Source of the DNA: Eledone cirrhosa
Taxonomy: Eukaryota
Assembly: GCA_964016885.1 (NCBI GenBank)
Contig: OZ024742.1
Location: 88,722,001-88,786,000, forward strand
Reading direction: 5' to 3'
Length of the DNA stretch: 64,000 bases
Shown here: positions 5,900 through 44,300 of the stretch, one piece after another
Numbering within the stretch: position 1 is the stretch's first letter
How the letters are laid out: each line of letters begins with the position of its first letter
Notes under the pieces: generated by a model
The model's database searches: none
The model's input: the letters and a program-made list of their open reading frames with translations, nothing else
Told to the model about the DNA's origin: nothing
Position numbers and translations under genes: made by a program

Positions 5900-6306
5900 A
5901 GGGGATTCCTTTCTTTGTTTATGTGCCTCTCCTTTGTTCTGTCCTACGCCATTTTGTTTCTGTGTGTGTGTTGTGTGCTCAGTCAGCGCATGTGCCACAT
6001 CCGGGAGTCTGTGTGTGTTTATGTTCATTTATTTATTTGTTTAATTACATGTTACTGGTTGGTTGTTTGTTCTATGTGTGTGTGTGTTTTCATTTTGTCC
6101 TTAATTGTAAGTTCCACTCATATTTTCTATTTAATTTTGGTTGTAATTCTTTTATGTTAAATGCCTCTGTAATTTGTCTAAACATTGCGTTTTTCTGTGT
6201 GTAGATTCCATTTTTATTTCTATGTTCTCTAATTTACCCTTGTGTTCTATCTTAGCATGTTGGTAGAGTACAGATGATTCTTTATTATCGTGAAGGTCTC
6301 TCCGTC

Positions 6307-6734
6307 AAAAAATACTTATTAGCAAGACATACCCTTTTCAAAGACCCTCATGTATAGATAAGAAATGTATAACCTGTAAAATAAGCCCCCATATTAACTG
6401 TAAAACTAGAAATGTAGTGTATAGCATAAGATGTACTGAAGGACAATGTAGAGAAAAAAATATAGTGTACATAGGTGAGACAGCTCGTAGTGTAGGGGAA
6501 CGGATAAATGAACACTGGAGAGACCTTCAAGATAATAAAGAATCATCTGTACTCTACCAACATGCTAAGATAGAACACAAGGGTAAATTAGAGAACATAG
6601 AAATAAAAATAGAATCTACACACAGAAAAGACGCAATGTTTAGACAAATTACAGAGGCAATAAACATAAAAGAATTACAACCAAAATTAAATAGAAAATA
6701 TCAGTGGAACAGCAACATCACAACTTACAATTAA
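6307..6734 (+). pseudogene. PLE GIY-YIG endonuclease domain (5'-truncated ORF)
   Basis: CIDKKCITC..CKTRNVVYSIRC...VYIGETARSVGERINEH...LYQH...H...RQITEAINI...PKLN. Confidence 0.9.
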
Positions 6735-7344: not shown

Positions 7345-8150
7345 GTTTAAGTTAATTTTATTTATATGTTAAAGATTCTATGGTATGTGTGTGGTTTATG
7401 GAAGTGATTATCGATTAATTTAAAGAATATAGAAGGTAGGTTGGTCCTTATAAAGGAGTTGAAAATTAGATTGAACCACAAATACTTCTTAATTCTGGGT
7501 TTCCTAACATACACCGTAACATCAGACACAAAACGCAACCGCATAACAGCATCACAATCACCCGCACGTCAGTATGTCACAACAAAACACCAACAGACCC
7601 AAATCCCAGCATGTCTCAATCAACATATCGAACTACGACGAGGAACCTGCACATAGGAAGGCCTCCAAATGTAACTTCCACCTTCCTGATAAATGCCCAC
7701 TACGGAATAGATGCCTGGTGTCCAGTATGGTATACCTATGCACTATTAAGTCTGGCAATCTGGCATGTCACTACATATGTTGTACGGATGGTGACTTCAA
7801 GAAACGATGGTATGTGCATCGACACTCCATAAAAAAACGAAAACTCAGTAACAAAACAACGCTGGCCAATAAAATCTGGCGGCTTAAGGGCAATAATCAA
7901 AGATATGAAATTAGCTAGTCGAAGTTATCATATGCAAAAGCCTACACGAACGGGATGTCCCATTGTGGACTCTGCAATATGCAGCTACTCCATATTCTAC
8001 AATGTAACAAAATGCTGCTCAACAGCAAGATCGAGCGGGCAATTTTCTGTACGCACAAACCTTCACTATATTCTCTAACTACAAACCAATACGAGCATGA
8101 TTCGATCCGGCAATCTCACTATCCATACAAAACTACCCTGATTTAAAACA
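7345..8150 (+). mobile_element. Penelope-like fragment: GIY-YIG (+) with an inverted upstream segment (-)
   Basis: ORF 7574-7918 reads KCNF...KCPLRNRCLVSSMVY...HYICCTDGDFKKRW..HRHS....TTLANKIWRLK. Minus ORF 7362-7544 (YLWFNLIFNSFIRTNLPSIFFKLIDNHF..PHTYHRIFN) resembles VLWFHPPYS..SNIPRIFFEALEKNFPPNHRYRKILN in the 23.5-26.8 kb PLE. Confidence 0.85.
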
Positions 8151-15443: not shown

Positions 15444-15479
<36 letters not shown>

Positions 15480-15483
<4 letters not shown>

Positions 15484-15678
15484 AATGAATATATGATATG
15501 GATAAACACTAATACCAGTATGTAAGTGTTTGTATTGCAAATGACCAAGTTAGCTAGATTGAAAAAATACTAATTAATATTTAATTAGTATTTTTCAATC
15601 TAGCTAACTTGGTCATTTGCAATACAAACACTTATATATTTGTATTAGTGTTTATCCATATCATATATTCATTTGTAT
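15480..15678. repeat. Near-perfect ~200 bp palindrome
   Basis: acaaatgaatatatgatatggataaacac...tactaattaa followed by ttaattagta...gtgtttatccatatcatatattcatttgt. A single arm recurs at 28880-28970. Confidence 0.9.
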
Positions 15679-15754
15679 TACACGGCTCAGAAATATCTCT
15701 TTCTTTGGGCTATTTAATTGTAAAAGACTGTTTGAGTTTATAACTCTATATATA

Positions 15755-15794
<40 letters not shown>

Positions 15795-16017
15795 CTATGT
15801 ATATATATATATATATATGTACATATATATGTACGTACATACACCCACACACACTCAGACATATATATATATAAAAAAATAGAATTGGAGCTCTGAAATA
15901 GCAATATATATATGAATGTATATATAATGTATTTTGCAATACACTTTATGGTTAAGTAAAAGCATTTTGAAGACCGTATGCTATTGTTTTAGAGTAGTGA
16001 CAAACTCACTTACTTTA

Positions 16018-16110
16018 ATCTCAGCAAACAGGGGAGATAACCCGACAAGGCCTTGTTTCGCATTTATTGATGCTTATCAAGGCTAACTACTCCCTCTTGT
16101 CTACTGAGAT
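16018..16110 (-). ncRNA. Type I hammerhead ribozyme, U3-A8 core variant (family B unit 1)
   Basis: The reverse complement reads ..tagcc-TTGATAA-GCAT-caataa-ATGC-GAAA-caaggccttg-TC-gggtta.. Stem III is the palindrome ACAAGGCCTTGT; stem I extends via atctcagtagaca/tgtttgctgagat. Confidence 0.75.
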
Positions 16111-16335
16111 CACTGATGTTATATTCTTATAGAATTCTAGTAAATAATCAGGAACTGATTATACAGAGCGGTTGCCGGTCAGGCAGAAATTAAAAATTAG
16201 AATTGGAGCTCTGAAATAGCAATATATATATGAATGTATATATAATGTATTTTGCAATACACTTTATGCTTAATTAAAAGCATTTTGAAGACCGTATGCT
16301 ATTGTTTTAGAGTAGTGACAAACTCACCTACTTTA

Positions 16336-16428
16336 ATCTCAGCAAACAGGGGAGATAAGCCGACAAGGCCTTGTTTCGCATTTATTGATGCTTATCAAGG
16401 TTAACTACTCCCTCCTGTCTACTGAGAT
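16336..16428 (-). ncRNA. Type I hammerhead ribozyme (family B unit 2)
   Basis: Same motif at +318. Confidence 0.75.
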
Positions 16429-16653
16429 CACTGGTGTTATATTCTTATAGAATTCTAGTAAATAATCAGGAACTGATTATACAGAGCGGTTGCCGGTCAG
16501 GCAGAAATTAAAAATTAGAATTGGAGCTCTGAAATAGCAATATATATATGAATGTATATATAATGTATTTTGCAATACACTTTATGCTTAATTAAAAGTA
16601 TTTTGAAGACTGTATGCTATTGTTTTAGAGTAGTGACAAACTCACTTACTTTA

Positions 16654-16722
16654 ATCTCAGCAAACAGGGGAGATAAGCCGACAAGGCCTTGTTTCGCATT
16701 TATTGATGCTTATCAAGGCTAA
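16654..16722 (-). ncRNA. Type I hammerhead ribozyme (family B unit 3, distal stem I cut by the inversion)
   Basis: agcc-TTGATAA...GAAA-caaggccttg-TC-ggct core is intact. Confidence 0.7.
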
Positions 16723-16829
16723 GCATAAAGTGTATTGCAAAATACATTATATATACATTCATATATATATTGCTATTTCAGAGCTCCAATTCTAATTTTT
16801 AATTAGAATTGGAGCTCTGAACACTAAAT

Positions 16830-17480
16830 AGCGAAAAGCTTCTGTTGAATAACCGAAAGCATTGAATGCATTGGTTTTTCTTTGGTGAGCAACGAATTGA
16901 CCAGGATTCTCCCAAAACAGACGATTATGCAGAGATCCTAAAGATCTACGCACAGAAAGTTTCCTGCAACTGTGATCGATTTCTGAGTCATAAGCAACGA
17001 GGGAGATAACACAACTCCTCACTTCTTACCTCGCAGTTGATGTATCAATGCCCCTAATTATAATGATGCGTTGGAGAGGCTTGTGAGGCCCTAGATAAAG
17101 TGGTTGAGCAAAAGAAGAACATAAACCAACCATGAATTGTGTCCCGTCCCATATTGCCAAGACCCCCAATGAATGGCTGAGTTATAACCTTCACTACCTT
17201 GTTACCCTAAACATATAGACGTCTATATCTTTGGGCCTGAATCCGATTGACTATTACGTATGGGGCTTACGGGATAAGGAGATCAATCAACGTACACATA
17301 ACCCTATAACAATTCTGAAGTCCACCGTAATCAACATCATAACCAAAATAGATAAAGACCAACTGATTTTTGAGTGTCAATGTTTAAATCATGCATTGAA
17401 GCAGTCATCAATGCTAACGTCAGATTCATTCAATAAATGCGTCAAGAAGAGTTTAAAAATTATTCTTGCTTCTTTTGTTC
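16830..17480 (+). mobile_element. Degenerate Tc1/mariner-superfamily transposase relic
   Basis: GLNPIDYYVWG (cf. SPDLNP.DY.VW) followed by INQRTHN.ITILKSTV... Confidence 0.65.
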
Positions 17481-19081: not shown

Positions 19082-19299
19082 TATACACATATATATATAT
19101 ATGTGTGTGTGTGTGTGCGCGCGCGCGGATGGCGGCGAAGCAGGACTAAGATACGGTGTGTATGCGTTTATATATATATATATACATACATTAAGGGTGA
19201 AAGCAGCGATTCTTTGCTTAAACTTTAATGTGTTATTTTAATAAATATATATATATATATATATATATAAGATCAAAAGATGGTTAAAGGAGTTCCATG

Positions 19300-19370
19300 T
19301 ATTTTATTATGCGCATTTCAAAAACAAACATCATCATGCAATAATATTTGTGTTTTCATCAGATAAAACA
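19300..19370 (-). ncRNA. Type I hammerhead ribozyme, left arm of the palindrome
   Basis: Reverse complement of the motif at 21419-21489. Confidence 0.72.
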
Positions 19371-21418
19371 GGAGAACATGATATGAAGGCTAAAAAACAC
19401 TTGTGGATAGTGCAGTTTTAAATCAACATACGAAAAGTAGTTTTAGATTGATGTGTGATATTGGGAAAAATATTTTATTTAGAGAGGGGGGTGGAAAGGA
19501 TCAAAGAAGGGGAGGAGATGAGAGTGAAGGTGGAGAGGGAGAGATGGGTGATAGAGAGAAAGAGATATTTTTTATAACTGAGAAAAGATATATTGTTTTA
19601 CATAGAGAGGTTGAGAACCGTTGGAAGATAATGTATAAATTAAAAGAATTTGAAAATTAACGAAGGGAAAGAGAGGGAGTTGATATGTATTGAGATTAAA
19701 AAGTTTGAAGATAGAGAGAAAAAAATAATAATTGCGGATGAATATTCTAACGTCAAAAAGGTGTATGTTTATAAGTATTATGGCAATTTCAAAATTAACG
19801 AAGAGAAAAAATGATTAAGGTTTGTGTGTTGAAGTTAAAGTTTGTATATTGAAGGAATTGATTATATGTGCGAATAAAGAGTTAATATGTATTAAAATTA
19901 TTAAGGTTTGTGTATTAGATGATTTGAGAAAAATAATGTGAAGTTAAGGTATTTATATTGAAGGAATTGATAATTTGTGCGAAGAAAGAGTTAATATGTA
20001 TTAAGAATGAGTTAGTTGATGGGAAGAAAAAAATATATTATTAAGGATGAATATTCTAGCGTCAAAAGAAGGAGAGGGAGTTAATGTATTGAGATTCAAA
20101 AGTTTGATGATGGAGAGAAAAATAATAATAATTGCGGATGAATATTCTAACGTCAAAAAAACAAATGTATATGTTATGAAGGATTTTACAAGGTGAAGAT
20201 AGAATGAGAGTAATGAGTAAACAAGTATTATAGAGTGTATAATGCCCTTTGAAGTAAGGTAGGAAGATGGGTATATTTTAAAGAGGTGTATGTATATGTG
20301 CCTTTGAGAAAAGATTCTAAATTGATAATGAATTGAGAATTTAGAATTAGGAATTTAGAATCTTTTCTCAAAGGCACATATACATACACCTCTTTAAAAT
20401 ATACCCATCTTCCTACCTTACTTCAAAGGGCATTATACACTCTATAATACTTGTTTACTCATTACCCTCATTCTATCTTCACCTTGTAAAATCCTTCATA
20501 ACATATACATTTGTTTTTTTGACGTTAGAATATTCATCCGCAATTATTATTATTTTTTCTCTCCATCATCAAACTTTTGAATCTCAATACATTAACTCCT
20601 TCTCCTTCTTTTGACGCTAGAATATTCATCCTTAATAATATATTTTTTTCTTCCCATCAACTAACTCATTCTTAATACATATTAACTCTTTCTTCGCACA
20701 TATAATCAATTCCTTCAATATACAAACTTTAACTTCAACACACAAACCTTAATAATTTTTTCTCTTCGTTAATTTTGAAATTGCCATAATACTTATAAAC
20801 ATACACCTTTTTGACGTTAGAATATTCATCCGCAATTATTATTTGTTTCTCTCTATCTTCAAACTGTTTAATCTCAATACATATCAACTCCCTCTCTTTC
20901 TCTTCGTTAATTTTCAAATTCTTTTAATTTATACATTATCTTCCAACGGTTCTCAACCTCTCTATGTAAAACAATATATCTTTTCCCAGTTATAAAAACT
21001 ATCTCTTTCTCTCTATCACCCATCTCTCCCTTTCCACCTTCACTCTCATCTCCTCCCCTTTTTTCATCCTTTCCACCCCCTCTCTAAATAAAATATTTTT
21101 TCCTCGTACATATTTTTCCCTTCGTTAATTTTCAAATTCTTTTAATTCATACATTATCTTCCAACTGTTTTCAACCTCTCTATGTAAAACAATATATCTT
21201 CTCTCAGTTATAAAAACTATCTCTTTCTCTCTATCACCCATCTCTCCCTCTCCACCTTCACTCTCATCTCCTCCCCTTCTTTCATCCTTTCCACCCCCCT
21301 CCCTCTCTAAATAAAATATTTTTCCCAATATCACACATCAATCTAAAACTACTTTTCATATGTTGATTTAAAACTGCACTATCCACAAGTGTTTTTTAGC
21401 CTTCATATCATGTTCTCC

Positions 21419-21489
21419 TGTTTTATCTGATGAAAACACAAATATTATTGCATGATGATGTTTGTTTTTGAAATGCGCATAATAAAATA
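21419..21489 (+). ncRNA. Type I hammerhead ribozyme, right arm of the palindrome
   Basis: tgttttat-CTGATGA-aaacacaaatattattgcatgatgatgtttgttttt-GAAA-tgcgca-TA-ataaaata. Stem I is 8 bp, stem III is the palindrome ATGCGCAT, and the site is AUA. Confidence 0.72.
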
Positions 21490-21610
21490 CATGGAACTCC
21501 TTTAACCATCTTTTGATCTTATATATTATGTATACTCCAGTCCTACAAACTGTAGAGTGCTTCTTATCCGATATCTGCATTGCTTTATTGTACTACAATA
21601 AAACTCACCT

Positions 21611-23469: not shown

Positions 23470-23546
23470 ATTTTTTTCTCTCTCTCGATACGTAAATACT
23501 ATATTACCGTGCTCCTTGTGTAGAGCACCTCACTTTATTTGCCATA

Positions 23547-26330
23547 ATGTTAGAGAATCAGCCGTTACCCATGTCTCTCAAGTGTATCCCCTTACCCAGC
23601 CGAAAAATCTACCTCAAACAACTTATAGACGCTACTAACTCGTTTATACGGAGAGTCGGATGGAAGGCCTACCACCTAGATAAGAACACCCGTAACCTTC
23701 CTGAACCTAAAGACAGGTATGACTTCAACACATACAGAAACCCACCGCACAACACCTTACTAGACTCCTTTGAGGAGGACCTGCTGAAAATGATCAGAAA
23801 CGTTAAGTTTAAAAAGAAACACCGATGCAGCAATCCATTCTTAACGTCCCTTGATACGCTCATCACTAAGATCAAGAATGACCCACACCTCTTCGTCACC
23901 TCCGACAAAACCAAGAAGCTGTACAAGATAGACGCGAGCAAGTATAAATAATTCATTTATAAAGAACTACACAAAGATTACAAAAAGACACCCATTAGTA
24001 CCCTAAATGACATAACTAAAGTAGGGAAGGATAGAGTTACCAGCTTAGAAATAGAAAAGTACTAAAACCCGTACGTCCCTCTGACGCCTAGATTCTCCCT
24101 TAAGGATCACAAATGTAACTTCAATGAAAGCCCCTCTATTATACTAATATGTCCCTGTACATCTGATATAGGTAATATAAGTAAAGTGATCCTCGATAGA
24201 GTACTATTGGAGCTTAATTGAAAGGCTAAGTTCTGCCTCTGGGGCAACACCGACCAAGTCATAAATTGGTTCACTGATTTGCCTGATAAAGCGACCCTGA
24301 AGTTCATCTAGTTTAACATAGATAGTTACTACGCCTCTCTCTCCCCCATACTCTTAAATAAGGCACTCATATTAGCTAAATCTAAAACTAGCCTCACTCA
24401 CTAAAAAAGAAATAGACATAGTTCTAGCGGCGCGTAGAACCATTATCCAGTTCGAAGGCTCCCACTGGACCAGAACCAACCGTCCTGATGATTTCGATAT
24501 CACAATGGGGTCCAGCGACTCAGCGCAAGCAACTGACTTGGTCGGAATATACCTCCTCCATAAGCTTAGGGACGAGATACCGGCCCTACAAGGAGGTGTA
24601 TATTGGGACGACGCCCTGTTTACCGTGGGGAACCATAGCCCTCGTAGGATAGAGAACCTTAACAAACATATACACAGGTTCTTCAAGTCATACTGCCTAT
24701 ACGTAACTATAGACCTCAACCACCATGTTGTCAACTTCCTGGACGTGACCCTGGAGTTGAGTGGGGTCTATACAAGCCATACCATAAGCCTGGAGAGAGC
24801 CTTTCTCATATTAATTATGCCTCCAATCACCCTAGGCAGACTCAAAACTCCATAGTCTATAGCATCTCACATAGGATCTCGAGTCTCTTCGCCAATGAGG
24901 ATATCTTCAAACAAGCGGCAGAATACTACAATAGGGCCTTAATAAGCGATGGCTTTAAACGAGAAATTTACTACATCCCTAACGCTAGCTCCAGAAACCA
25001 CCGCCCTCATAAGACGAACATTATAGCAAGCCATACCTATAACCGATCACGCGGCGACCTCATAGGAGTCGGATGTAATAGTATAGATAATCGCACTAAG
25101 GAACACTGCCGCAACGTTAATTACACTGGCGATAGTATAGGTAACATACGACACAATAAGGATCACGACCACGGTGGCAGTGACCACTGAAGCCTACTTG
25201 AATTATTCCCCTACTATAAAATCAACAAATGCGACGGCCTACTGTCAACGCCTTCCAACCAACATCTTCCTGTACATAAACATAGAAGAAGGAAGAAGAG
25301 TGCACCCGAGCATAAAGTTAAAGGGACACGGTAACGGGCTACAGCGCATCAACATGCATAAGAACGGTCACCCTGGTGGAACCGCCCGTAGCAAACGTAC
25401 AAGGACACGTAATCACCACCGTAACGTCCTATGGTTCCATCCTCCCTATTCTCGGAGTGTAGCCTCCAACATACCCCGGATATTCTTCGAAGCCTTAGAG
25501 AAGAACTTCCCACCCAACCATAGGTATAGAAAAATCCTTAATAGGAACAATATAAAAATATCCTTCACTACTACTCCTAACCTAGCAGACATAATAGGAA
25601 CAACTAATCACAGTAATATAACCAAGACACAGCACCTTAGCACAGACGCACCTACACCTGACCATAACTATATCGGCCTTAACGACTCCCTAGCAGCACC
25701 CAATAGTGCTGGCAACAGCCTCTACAGACGCAACCAGCATAACCGCGACATGACTGGGGAACATGCAGGACATGACGTGCGGAAATTATAATGGTACCAC
25801 CCCGCGCACAGTGGTTTATGATGGTGCTACCGACAGGTGCGGGAGCGTTGGTAACAACGTAGATAGCAATAATGGTAGCCTTACCGTGGGAATTAGAAGG
25901 GACCGCGACAGAAATTGCAACTGCCGAGACAGGGAACACTGCCCCCTTAGGGGATACTGCTTGACTGATAGGGTTATGTATAGGTGCACAGTAACTAGCC
26001 ACAATTACTTTAAACATTATATAGGGGCTATCTCAGGCCCGTTCAAAATTAGATTTCGAAATCATCTCGACTCTTTCACAAATAAGAAATTAAGACACTC
26101 CACTTCGCTCGCGGACTACATCACATCATTAAAATAATTAAACATCAGCTTCCCCACGCACTGGGATATTGTCGGCATGGCTGCACCGTACAACTTCAAG
26201 AAGAAGTGCGATGTTTACCTCATATAGCTCTGCCACATCATAACGGCACCCGACGAGCTCATCAACAGCATAGCTGAAACGACGATCAGCTGTACCCAAC
26301 GCTTAAAAAGATGGGATAAGGATGAGGAGT
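23547..26330 (+). pseudogene. PLE polyprotein: reverse transcriptase + GIY-YIG endonuclease, with stops and frameshifts
   Basis: FIRRVGWKAYH; SDKTKKLYK; LKDHK; FDITMGSSDSAQATDLVGIYLL; GGVYWDDAL; VNFLDVTL; WFHPPYS; CNCRDREHCPLRGYCL..VMY...YIGAISGPFKIRFRNHLDSF. Confidence 0.92.
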
Positions 26331-28005: not shown

Positions 28006-28058
28006 TTTTATTATACATATTTCGAATGTACGACAGTACGTCCTCATCAGACAAAATA
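28006..28058 (-). ncRNA. Hammerhead-like motif, isolated
   Basis: The reverse complement reads ttttgt-CTGATGA-ggacgtac-tgtc-gtacattc-GAAA-tatg-TA-taataaaa. Stem I is imperfect. Confidence 0.5.
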
Positions 28059-41333: not shown

Positions 41334-44300
41334 GTTCTTTGTGTCTCAGTCATTGATGTTAGTTAACTGGAAAGTTTGTTGAAATGAATATCAAGCCACT
41401 ACCTGCAGCCTCAGATATTCAGGACCTATCGGAGGGTTCTTGCTGTTCCAAGCAGGCATGCCTTAAAAGCGTTCCAAAAAGCGTGAAGGGGCCAATTTTC
41501 TTTAACCATCCCTGGAAACATTTTGAGATAGTCCCTAGTGCGCCTACGACAATCGGGATCACTTTGACTTCATGGCAGTTCCAAATCCTTTTTACCTCCC
41601 ACTTTAAGTCCTGGTATAGGTTAAGTTTCTCCCTCTCCTTCTCTTTCACTCTCGTGTCGAATGGGCAGGCCACATCCACAATCAGGCACGATCTTTTTTC
41701 TTTGTCCACAAACACCAGGTCAGGTCTATTGTGTTCCAGTTTCTTGTCCGTCTGTATCCTAAAATCCCATAGCACCTTCAGCTGATCGTTTTCTATCACC
41801 GACTCTGGCTTATGCTCATACCACTTCTCAGAATGTGGTAAATTGTTTACTTTGCATAGGTGCTAGTGGATCACCCTGCCTATCACAATCATGTCTCCAG
41901 CCCTTATAGTGAGTCTGGGCTAGGTGTTTATACTCGGATACAATGTGAGCCACAGTCTCCTCTCTCTCTCTCCACAGATCCTGCACAGTGGGCTAGCCTC
42001 CTCCTTGTAAATATGGTGTTTCAACCACTTCGTTTTGAGGGCCTGCTCCTGCGCAGCCATTAACATTCCTTCTGTAGCCTTTTTAAGGTCTCCTCTTTTC
42101 AACAAGTTCCATGTCTGTGGATCTCTAAATTCAGTTTTCTCAAAGAAGGTACTATGAAGAGATTTTTTCCTGAAGGCTGCTCTTTCTCCTTGATGTTATT
42201 TCCTCCTTGGACATCCCCTGGTCTATTGTCCCCTCCTTCAGTACAGTTCTAAGCATTGGCTCCTTACTATCAGTCACGTATTTGTGTAGGTTGTTTTTCT
42301 CCATCTGAACACAGTCCTCAATGCTGATAAGACCTCTTCCACCTTCAGATCTCCTTAAGTAGAGTCTATCGACATCATTACTCTTGCGGAACATGTTGTA
42401 GATAGTTAATAGCTTCTAGTTTTCCTATCCATTTATTTTTGTTCAGCAAGATTCCATCTCAGAATTCCCGCGTTGTATCTAATAATAGACACAGCTCGGG
42501 AATGTACTGCACTTATGGCATTCCTACTGTTCAGATGTGACTTTAATACGCTCCTTACTCTCCGAATGTATTCAGTTCTTATCAATTCCTTCATTTTTTT
42601 ATTCTTGATGTCATCTCCCTCCAGAACACCCAAATACTTGTATCCTTCTTCAGAGTCAATTTCCTTTATCATCTCACCTGTTGGTACCTGGATTCCGTTA
42701 CTTCTGCTCAATTTACCCCTCCTCATCACAATGACTCCACACTTACTAATACCAAATTGCATACATATATGATTGCTGAAAATAAGGAGTGTCTCAACAA
42801 GCACATCCAACTCCTTCTCACTCTTCTCGAAGAGCTTAAGTTCGTCCATGAAGAGGATGTGATTGATGGTAAGCCCTCCCTTTCCCAACCTGTATCCTGC
42901 TCTCACTTTTCGCAGTACACTAGTCATGGGAATCAGGGCAAGGACAAACAACAGAGTGGACGGACAATCTCCCTGGAAGATACCTTTCTTGATCTTCACG
43001 CTTCTCAAGAATTCTCCAGTTGATGTTAACTCTGTTTCCCAGGACTTCATACTTTTGCCCAACAACTGTCTGATGTTATCTGCCACCTTGAAGATCTCCA
43101 GGCTTTTGGTGATCCAAGAATGAGGCACCATGTCAAATGCCTTTTTGCAGTCTATCCATCCCATGGCAAGACCAGTGTGTCTCCTCTTGCAATTACTCAT
43201 TACCATCTTATCAATAATTAACTGGTCCTTTGTACCACGGGACTTCTTTCGGCATCCTTCCTGTTCGTCCGGTAACAAGTTGTTTATGTGGAGGTTAACA
43301 ATGCTTGTTAACAGTTTCCACATTACGGATAGACATGTGATAGGTCTATAGTTGGTATCATCATTAACCTTGATTCGGTCTTTCATTACCAGAACTGTGG
43401 TACCTTTTGTCAACCTCTCTTGTACCTCACCTGACATTTTGGGTGGAGGGATGTTATATTTTTAATCCAATACCCCTGCACACCATCTGGGCCTGGTGAT
43501 TTCCAGTTGGTTAGTTGTTTGGCCTGCTCTTTGAGAGTTTCAACTGTGATACTCAAATAAGTTTGTTGGTGTGCCTGTTCACTAATCTCCTTCTGTACTG
43601 TCTCAATCCACACTGTCTGGTCATTATGTTTAACGTCCTGCTCCCATATTCCTCTCCAGAATGTTTTAGTTTGTTCCGCATCAGGGATCAAGTCGTTAAC
43701 TCTTTCTTTCCCTTCAAGCTGTCCAAACAGCATCTTCTAGTTGTTGTCGAACATGCAGTTCTGTCTATACTGACTGACTATGTTCTCGTATCGCCTGATT
43801 GTTGCACTCTTTGCTACAATGCGTTGCTTCAGTTCCTATATGATAATATTTCGCTTTTTCCTCCTAGTTTTGTACTTTATTTCCAGTCTATGTTTAGTGT
43901 CTATATTTTTTAGTGTCCCATTCAGTAGGGACTCAAGCTTTCCAATGTCATTTCTCATTTCCCTGATTTGACCACTCAGTCGTTTCTTCCACCAAGGCTC
44001 TGATCTTTCTTGTCTGTTGTTTCCTCTCGCTTTTATACCAAGTAGTTTCCTCACCGTATTTGCTGTTGCTTTGAGGATATTGTTGCACTGGTGAAAGCTC
44101 CTCGCCTCAAAGTATGGGATGACTTTGTTTACCTTAGCTGTTGTTTCTTTTAACTTTTTCCTGTCTACAAATCTTAGGTTCATAGGTTTCCCACTATCAT
44201 TGTTCAATTCATCTACCACTAACTTTAGGATATCAACCAAATCTTGTCCTAGCCCGTCAGCATTCATCTCCTCAGTGGCCGTATCTCTGTTCCAGGTATT

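Follow-up and report, generated by a model that had tools for sequence, protein, structure and literature searches.

The locus described here raises the question of whether a short tandem repeat with a hammerhead-like motif in each unit is a retrozyme and, if so, from what template and by which enzyme it was written into the genome. The repeat lies in a 64,000-nucleotide stretch of Eledone cirrhosa DNA (the window), in which TRF reported a tandem array at 15874-16722 with a period of 318, 2.7 copies, and 97% matches, in agreement with the near-identical 318-bp units that an earlier note on this DNA had described. We consider it probable that the repeat, termed family B, belongs to the retrozymes: its non-coding tandem units are dispersed, preserve a type I hammerhead fold of the U3-A8 variety, and are bounded by Penelope-type ends. 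It is likely non-autonomous, a small RNA circle serving as its template and a Penelope-like element lending the enzyme.

At the window locus, the unit is 318 bp long with a GC content of 33%, and its longest stop-free frame is 52 aa. The array and its surroundings comprise the following features (monomer positions are numbered from the predicted cut site):

15747..15870, no strand: TA-rich microsatellite target flank
15871..16722, minus strand: main arm, made of a 43-nt 5'-truncated piece, two full 318-nt monomers, and a 173-nt terminal piece
16679-16362 and 16361-16044, minus strand: the full monomers of the main arm
15878..15903, minus strand: 26-nt "tail" between the short 3' end of the family (~130-140, internal AT run) and its long 3' end (~166-171)
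16165..16180, with a second copy at 16483-16498, minus strand: 16-nt motif in a small hairpin directly 3' of the long end, common to the superfamily
16680..16722, minus strand: hammerhead 1, with its core at 16716-16710 and a cut predicted to follow 16680; only ~5 nt of the 5' stem I strand are left
16332..16431, minus strand: hammerhead 2, with its core at 16398-16392, the palindrome at 16374-16363, and a cut predicted to follow 16362; stem I is long and interrupted
16014..16113, minus strand: hammerhead 3, with its core at 16080-16074, the palindrome at 16056-16045, and a cut predicted to follow 16044
16720..16804, plus strand: second, inverted arm of 85 nt, 100% complementary, monomer positions 90-174
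16801..16821, minus strand: 21-nt fold-back closing the second arm, monomer positions 147-167, atypical for family B

In sense-strand order, the main arm reads [276-318][1-318][1-318][1-173] and then (TA)n, its terminal piece stopping at the long 3' end of the family, inside (TA)n. The two arms overlap by 3 nt at their junction, and the second arm ends in the right flank (16822-17350), not in (TA)n. This flank gave no Pfam match, and by its motif it resembles a decayed Tc1/mariner transposase; a likeness of 16996-17015, inside the flank, to stem I was taken as chance. No target-site duplication was discernible in the window, the targets being (TA)n, and no flanking LTR pair was found in the 26 family B insertions. 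A separate inverted repeat of 88 bp (15479-15678, 97% complementary, 24-nt spacer) lies between TA runs. The 16-nt hairpin motif is a possible enzyme-binding or promoter signal.

Compared with the family majority, the window copy showed 9 counted singleton differences, plus one at position 3, and a one-base deletion common to all three units. Because 22 of the 26 family B insertions have one extra base, the usual family B unit is 319 nt long. The window locus is a slightly decayed family B copy (roughly 1%). The earlier note had regarded this array as the best retrozyme candidate; the retrozyme identity is well supported by the dispersal and covariation described below, but the window locus is not the best copy to test because of its ~1% decay and its atypical second arm.

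Each unit carries a type I hammerhead on the minus strand, with cores UUGAUAA at 16716, 16398, and 16080 and predicted C17 cut positions (GUC) after 16680, 16362, and 16044. Each core is accompanied by stem II GCAU/AUGC (loop CAAUAA), GAAA, a stem III formed by the 12-nt palindrome ACAAGGCCUUGU, and GUC, so that the variant hammerhead proposed in the earlier note was present in all three units. Private mismatches were observed in proximal stem I, namely A.C at 16401 in hammerhead 2 and G.G at 16041 in hammerhead 3. The core variant UUGAUAA has U3-A8 replacing C3-G8, which is a tertiary Watson-Crick pair, and laboratory ribozymes with U3-A8 retain activity. A motif descriptor, composed after the motif had been seen, gave exactly 3 matches in the window compared with a mean of 0.017 and a maximum of 1 in 60 local Markov shuffles. 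Rfam listed no hammerhead among 119 matches at E ≤ 1. A canonical minimal hammerhead is located at 28050 (minus strand) of the window, and this type is also present in loci L003, L012, L018, L031, and L036.

The distribution of the repeat was then considered across the 3.0-Gb genome, which is rich in TA microsatellite. The best full-unit matches were 95-100% identical and lay on many contigs (40 scored of 1650 candidates), and the exact 42-nt ribozyme had 130 dispersed copies (control, 0), so the array is not a single-locus satellite, the outcome that the earlier note had named as fatal to its proposal. The 30 family B loci analyzed, chosen as the best full-unit matches, represent 26 distinct insertions, and UUGAUAA occurred in 57 of their 63 ribozyme-region matches. 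Three features of non-LTR retrozymes were found, namely a dispersed multi-copy family, a run of two or more adjoining tandem units that each contain a type I hammerhead (here with the variant core U3-A8), and a unit within 150-450 bp with a GC content below 50% and no protein. An older sister subfamily of B (285 pattern matches) retains U3-A8 and shows double changes in stems I, II, and III together with a different, still perfect palindrome, ACAGAGCUCUGU. The 16-nt superfamily motif, common to B and further subfamilies, had 18,746 matches genome-wide. Within this superfamily, family C is very young and has a 310-bp unit, family D carries U3-A8, and families E and F have canonical C3-G8 cores. 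In addition, the older B subfamily forms a long array of more than 10 diverged units that all point the same way (L037-L039; G000:C1, ~82.39 Mb), and a family C insertion was observed with arms of ~7 and ~17 units and one rare variant in all of them (L179; G000:C3:225226000-225235500). Related sequence was also seen at a small share (22 contigs) in a sequencing run, of unrecorded kind, from organism B, and is given no weight in the argument.

The conservation of the fold was assessed in an alignment of 26 ribozymes from 18 of 25 sequence clusters, the 7 clusters without a core-pattern member being left out. On the proposed structure, 91.2% of the cells were paired (slid controls, 33-43%), and changes on both sides were found in 20 of the 26 base pairs (0 of 500 shuffles), figures that are inflated by the core-pattern filter and by relatedness. 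Every helix contained some double changes, with 9 of 12 pairs affected in distal stem I. The 3-8 pair was U-A in 16 ribozymes, C-G in 8, U-G in 1, and another combination in 1, and these double changes across subfamilies bear out the earlier reading of U3-A8 as compensatory. Double changes in every helix would be hard to explain without selection on the RNA fold, and their presence at 20 of 26 pairs, including C3-G8/U3-A8, argues that the fold was selected. Templated repair between inverted repeats could also give covariation without selection. On a tree of the non-ribozyme parts, in which 3 of the 23 inner branches were well supported, 3 changes were counted for C-G and 5 for U-A, and the C3-G8/U3-A8 switch may have a single origin.

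The insertions themselves have a defined architecture. Two back-to-back arms were present in 20 of the 26 family B insertions, and in 14 of these 20 one arm ended at the short site (~130-140 past the cut site, in the internal AT run) and the other at the long site (~166-171). The remaining two-armed insertions were long plus long in 2 (the window insertion and L029), one fixed end plus one other in 3, and complex in 1, and short plus short in 0. In family C, short and long ends were combined in 10 of 10 two-armed insertions; L137 is left out of these end counts. A tail of 26-31 nt was found at one end only in 14 of 20 B and 10 of 10 C insertions, the window's insertion being an exception. Both B arm ends run into microsatellite, nearly always (TA)n, a frequency counted within the insertions themselves. 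The inner junctions of 45 arms were scattered over the whole unit, with 4 lying within 10 nt of the window junction where ~3 were expected. The inversion in the window does start inside stem I, as the earlier note had stated, but because inner junctions are scattered in this way, its position there is attributed to chance and not to a special role of the stem.

Penelope-like elements are described in the available text of PMC8557442 with partial tandems, an inverted 5'-truncated copy, a 30-40-bp one-end tail, and a (TA)n bias. The inverted 5'-truncated second copy of such elements is the configuration seen in the 20 two-armed B insertions, and this inverted end, together with the TA targets and the fixed positions of the 3' ends, is the footprint of a Penelope-like element. 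Elsewhere in the window, a large inverted element with its axis near 20340 and an internal 218-bp duplication at 20897-21323 occupies 19290-21520; a minimal hammerhead with the canonical CUGAUGA core lies at each of its two outer ends, at 19362 (minus) and 21427 (plus), and the element looks like another two-armed Penelope-type insertion.

RNA folding indicated a possible difference between single and tandem units, in a fold model that ignores tertiary contacts and Mg2+. In a single B unit, the 5' strand of stem III is engaged by the first residues of the core and those preceding it, and the active fold is predicted to lie 4.5 kcal/mol above the minimum. For the circular B monomer, the predicted probability of the blocked state was 0.97 and that of the active state 0.00. 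With two copies, unconstrained folding gave a double hammerhead in which stem III comprised 12 bp and both cores were free (-97.3 versus -86.0 kcal/mol), and the predicted probability of this form in cis two-ribozyme RNAs was 0.82-0.84 at two other loci and 0.70/0.84 at the window locus. The blocking helix is retained from family E (one copy) via old B to young B with its letters changing, and an in silico swap to a C3-G8 core lowered predicted blocking from 0.97 to 0.32. Double hammerheads were predicted in 11 of 15 young B, 12 of 15 old B, 9 of 14 C, 5 of 7 D, and 0 of 15 F sequences. Families C and D are without the blocking helix (0.07), and the palindrome is imperfect in E and F. Family F, with a canonical core, is predicted to be blocked (0.99) and has no double form, yet it has spread, so fold predictions may not reflect activity. 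On this modeling, cleavage is predicted for double and not for single hammerheads, and we put forward a dimer-on/monomer-off ribozyme switch as a real but tentative possibility. A fuller version, which we offer more tentatively still, is that U3-A8 belongs to a co-evolved switch in which the circle would be locked off through U3 and its neighbours pairing with the 5' strand of stem III, a tandem pair would form the double hammerhead, and a Penelope-like RT would copy the circle round and round from two fixed sites onto both strands of a (TA)n break. If true, the switch reading would mean that rolling-circle reverse transcription has left its trace in the genome, and it would account for the escape of these animal circles from self-destruction.

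The arms also carry information about the template. None of 46 arms stopped at the cut site, and 18 of the 20 shorter (less selected) arms crossed it; two apparent 5' ends at the cleavage site both extended upstream on inspection. Because the priming sites lie 140-170 nt past the cut, a cleaved linear monomer would give arms stopping at position 1. Arms cross this site and none stops there, and the template was therefore either ligated or uncleaved. In the variant survey of family C (11 insertions, 36,372 bases compared), 14 variants were found in all units of both arms, one insertion having a rare variant in 24 of 24 units, and further variants were found in all units of one one-armed insertion (1) and in 24 of 25 units (1). 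Thirteen singletons were counted, of which 8 were the same junction base at the short end and 5 were true. Such a pattern would be expected if a single monomer had been copied in a rolling manner onto the two strands, and the family C variants point to one monomer template, likely a circle. Family B showed 202 singletons in 20,206 bases (1.0%), and of its shared variants 10 occurred in every unit and 9 in a subset; because its own single-template signal is weak, the case for a circle in B draws mainly on the homologous family C. Overall, we regard a monomer-circle template as moderately likely.

The alternative that survives best, although we judge it unlikely, is a Penelope-mobilized non-autonomous repeat copied from long, uncleaved linear multimers of homogeneous arrays, with a hammerhead that is weak or otherwise used and a circle that is unnecessary. 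Uncleaved RNA would account equally well for the reading-through of the cut site, and long potential source arrays exist (L037-L039 and L179, described above). The predicted inactivity of the B monomer fold and the 9 "some-unit" variants in B also fit it, as does the inactivity in vitro of 8 of 9 Xenopus dimers in the portion available of Li et al. 2026. Homogeneous source arrays could mimic the family C pattern for one generation. Against this alternative, however, family C has many haplotypes, each carried by every unit of the two arms, and variants confined to part of an array are essentially absent, which argues for a monomer bottleneck per insertion, and the core and stems have been preserved through double changes across diverged subfamilies.

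The enzyme proposed for the circle-templated retrozyme has candidates in the same genome, which contains abundant RT plus GIY-YIG elements with a CX4CX2C linker. By the linker motif of PMC8557442, as given in its available text, and not by a tree, these appear to be Neptune/Nematis-like. Two families were examined: P1 is the older, whereas P2 (L168-L178) is young: in 5 copies compared, its 784-aa frames share 98.9-99.8% identity. This RT-endonuclease frame of P2 is overlapped by an upstream frame that reaches 455 aa. Long and short ends were combined in 5 of 5 two-armed P2 insertions. Both P1 and P2 carry a U3-A8 hammerhead-like motif with stem II GCAU/AUGC upstream of AT-rich ends, and this motif resembles the B core over 26-28 nt; the P2 motif has GCAA where B has GAAA, and the P2 tail is ~40 nt compared with 26-31 nt in B and C. 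Beyond the 26-28-nt core, no alignable homology of the B or C unit was found to P1 (30 loci) or P2 (11 stretches), and no autonomous partner homologous to the B unit was found among the P1 and P2 elements examined. Unit positions ~40-140 could be aligned with the P1 end at 65%, but the alignment is AT-rich and was treated as compositional. Taken together, the sequences strongly indicate that B is mobilized by a Penelope-like protein, and a retrozyme with Penelope-type mobilization is an identification that we hold with high confidence. In the window, Penelope-type ORF-like fragments were seen at 6294-6734, 7547-7918, and 23496-26137, with a Pfam match only at 6294-6731 (GIY-YIG), and a 342-aa reverse transcriptase fragment at 42433-43461 (minus strand; RVT_1, E 8e-21) is probably from a non-LTR retrotransposon.

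The two-ended footprint and the similar U3-A8 core in P1 and P2 would also be expected if an autonomous Penelope-like element had left the arrays behind as mere truncated pieces of its pseudo-LTRs. The unit, however, is repeated head to tail without an ORF and lacks the RT plus GIY-YIG frame of an autonomous element, and the ends of P1 and P2 are not alignable to it. No ORF ran into the ribozyme in 30 F-type loci and 30 variant-motif loci, no RT or GIY-YIG frame led directly into it in the B-young, B-old, D, and F loci examined, and the Penelope fragments in B, D, and F loci were unrelated neighbours. The pseudo-LTR remnant reading is thus largely refuted already, and we consider it very improbable. 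Equally improbable is a DNA-level satellite or rolling-circle DNA (Helitron-like) repeat in which the hammerhead-like motif is only a passenger. Identity within arrays can arise by rolling-circle copying of DNA or by array homogenization, but the 3' ends, two in number and fixed for each strand, the random truncation at the 5' side, and the inverted joining are as in the retroelement P2, and the covariation, with G-U tolerance, follows an RNA fold on one strand.

The retrozyme copied by a Penelope-like enzyme can be formulated as a cycle. Some arrays would be transcribed as minus-sense multimers, in which neighbouring ribozymes are predicted to pair by the 12-nt palindrome so that the double hammerhead cuts after GUC and releases 318-319-nt monomers. 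By analogy with other retrozymes, a host ligase would close the monomer into a circle, in which the 5' strand of stem III is predicted to tie up the ribozyme core, a state that would protect the circle. In keeping with the footprint seen in the insertions, a Neptune/Nematis-like RT-GIY-YIG protein would then nick (TA)n, with priming on the AT-rich sites ~140 and 166-171 nt past the cut, one per DNA strand. The enzyme would read round through the ligated cut site, and two 5'-truncated cDNAs would be joined back to back. The window copy would be such an insertion, ~1% decayed, with a short and folded-back second arm.

The element class, the U3-A8 variant (PMC4209133), and the link between retrozymes and Penelope are already in print. 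To the extent of the literature covered, with supplements and most subscription papers outside its scope, nothing was found on family B or on two-armed retrozyme insertions, no paper on cephalopod or octopus hammerheads covers family B, and nothing was found on a double hammerhead with an alternative conformation. U3-A8 hammerheads were found there only in the available text of PMC4209133; supplements may list U3-A8 retrozymes or inverted arrays.

Non-LTR retrozymes were defined in PMC7229834 (Cervera & de la Pena 2020), whose accessible text reports cleavage and circles in coral, mussel, and axolotl and proposes Penelope-like RTs as the copiers of the circles. Family B shares with these metazoan elements the dispersed non-coding tandem units of a few hundred bp with GC below 50% and one type I hammerhead with a long stem I per unit. 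It differs in its U3-A8 core and in its two-armed, fixed-end inverted insertions, the latter undescribed in the text available to us. The B monomer is predicted to be blocked by self-pairing, whereas most metazoan circles are predicted there to leave the ribozyme unblocked and active. Axolotl retrozyme ribozymes cleave better as dimers according to the same source, and the available text of PMC6155905 recounts a dimeric newt ribozyme. Metazoan retrozymes in PMC7229834 are known from expression and cleavage, whereas family B is known from sequence and folding.

In the available portion of Li, Clavereau & Pollet 2026 (10.64898/2026.07.22.740005), retrozymes are regarded as non-autonomous Penelope derivatives from pLTRs, and in vitro cleavage was obtained for 1 of 9 predicted retrozyme dimers. 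The Xenopus retrozymes resemble family B in being tandem hammerhead repeats that co-occur with Penelope-like elements. They show pLTR homology, whereas here homology is confined to the ribozyme core and the link is drawn through the insertion footprints. The Penelope pseudo-LTR hammerheads of PMC4209133 (Cervera & De la Pena 2014) share the U3-A8 covariation and the palindromic helix III with family B. As far as its available text goes, that study reports U3-A8 in ~1,300 Schistosoma mansoni Penelope-type motifs, proposed action as dimers via palindromic helix III, and a proposed circular template for more-than-unit copies. Those hammerheads are minimal and mostly single motifs, whereas in family B helix III spans 4 bp, stem I exceeds 20 bp, and the units are purely tandem. 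EN+ Penelope-like elements of the Neptune/Nematis type, as presented in the part of PMC8557442 at hand, share the partial tandems, inverted truncated copy, one-end tail, and (TA)n targets; family B differs from them in being without an ORF and in having a tail of 26-31 nt instead of 30-40 nt.

In their available text, PMC7229834 names as open the route by which animal retrozymes return to DNA and the means by which their circles escape being cut again, and PMC8557442 calls for an in vitro system for tandem and inverted Penelope structures. The superfamily offers a natural substrate of 310-319 nt with mapped priming sites, a C3-G8/U3-A8 subfamily series for core swaps, the very young sister family C, and an intact co-resident RT-endonuclease, and the questions of retrozyme write-back and re-cleavage are therefore directly testable.
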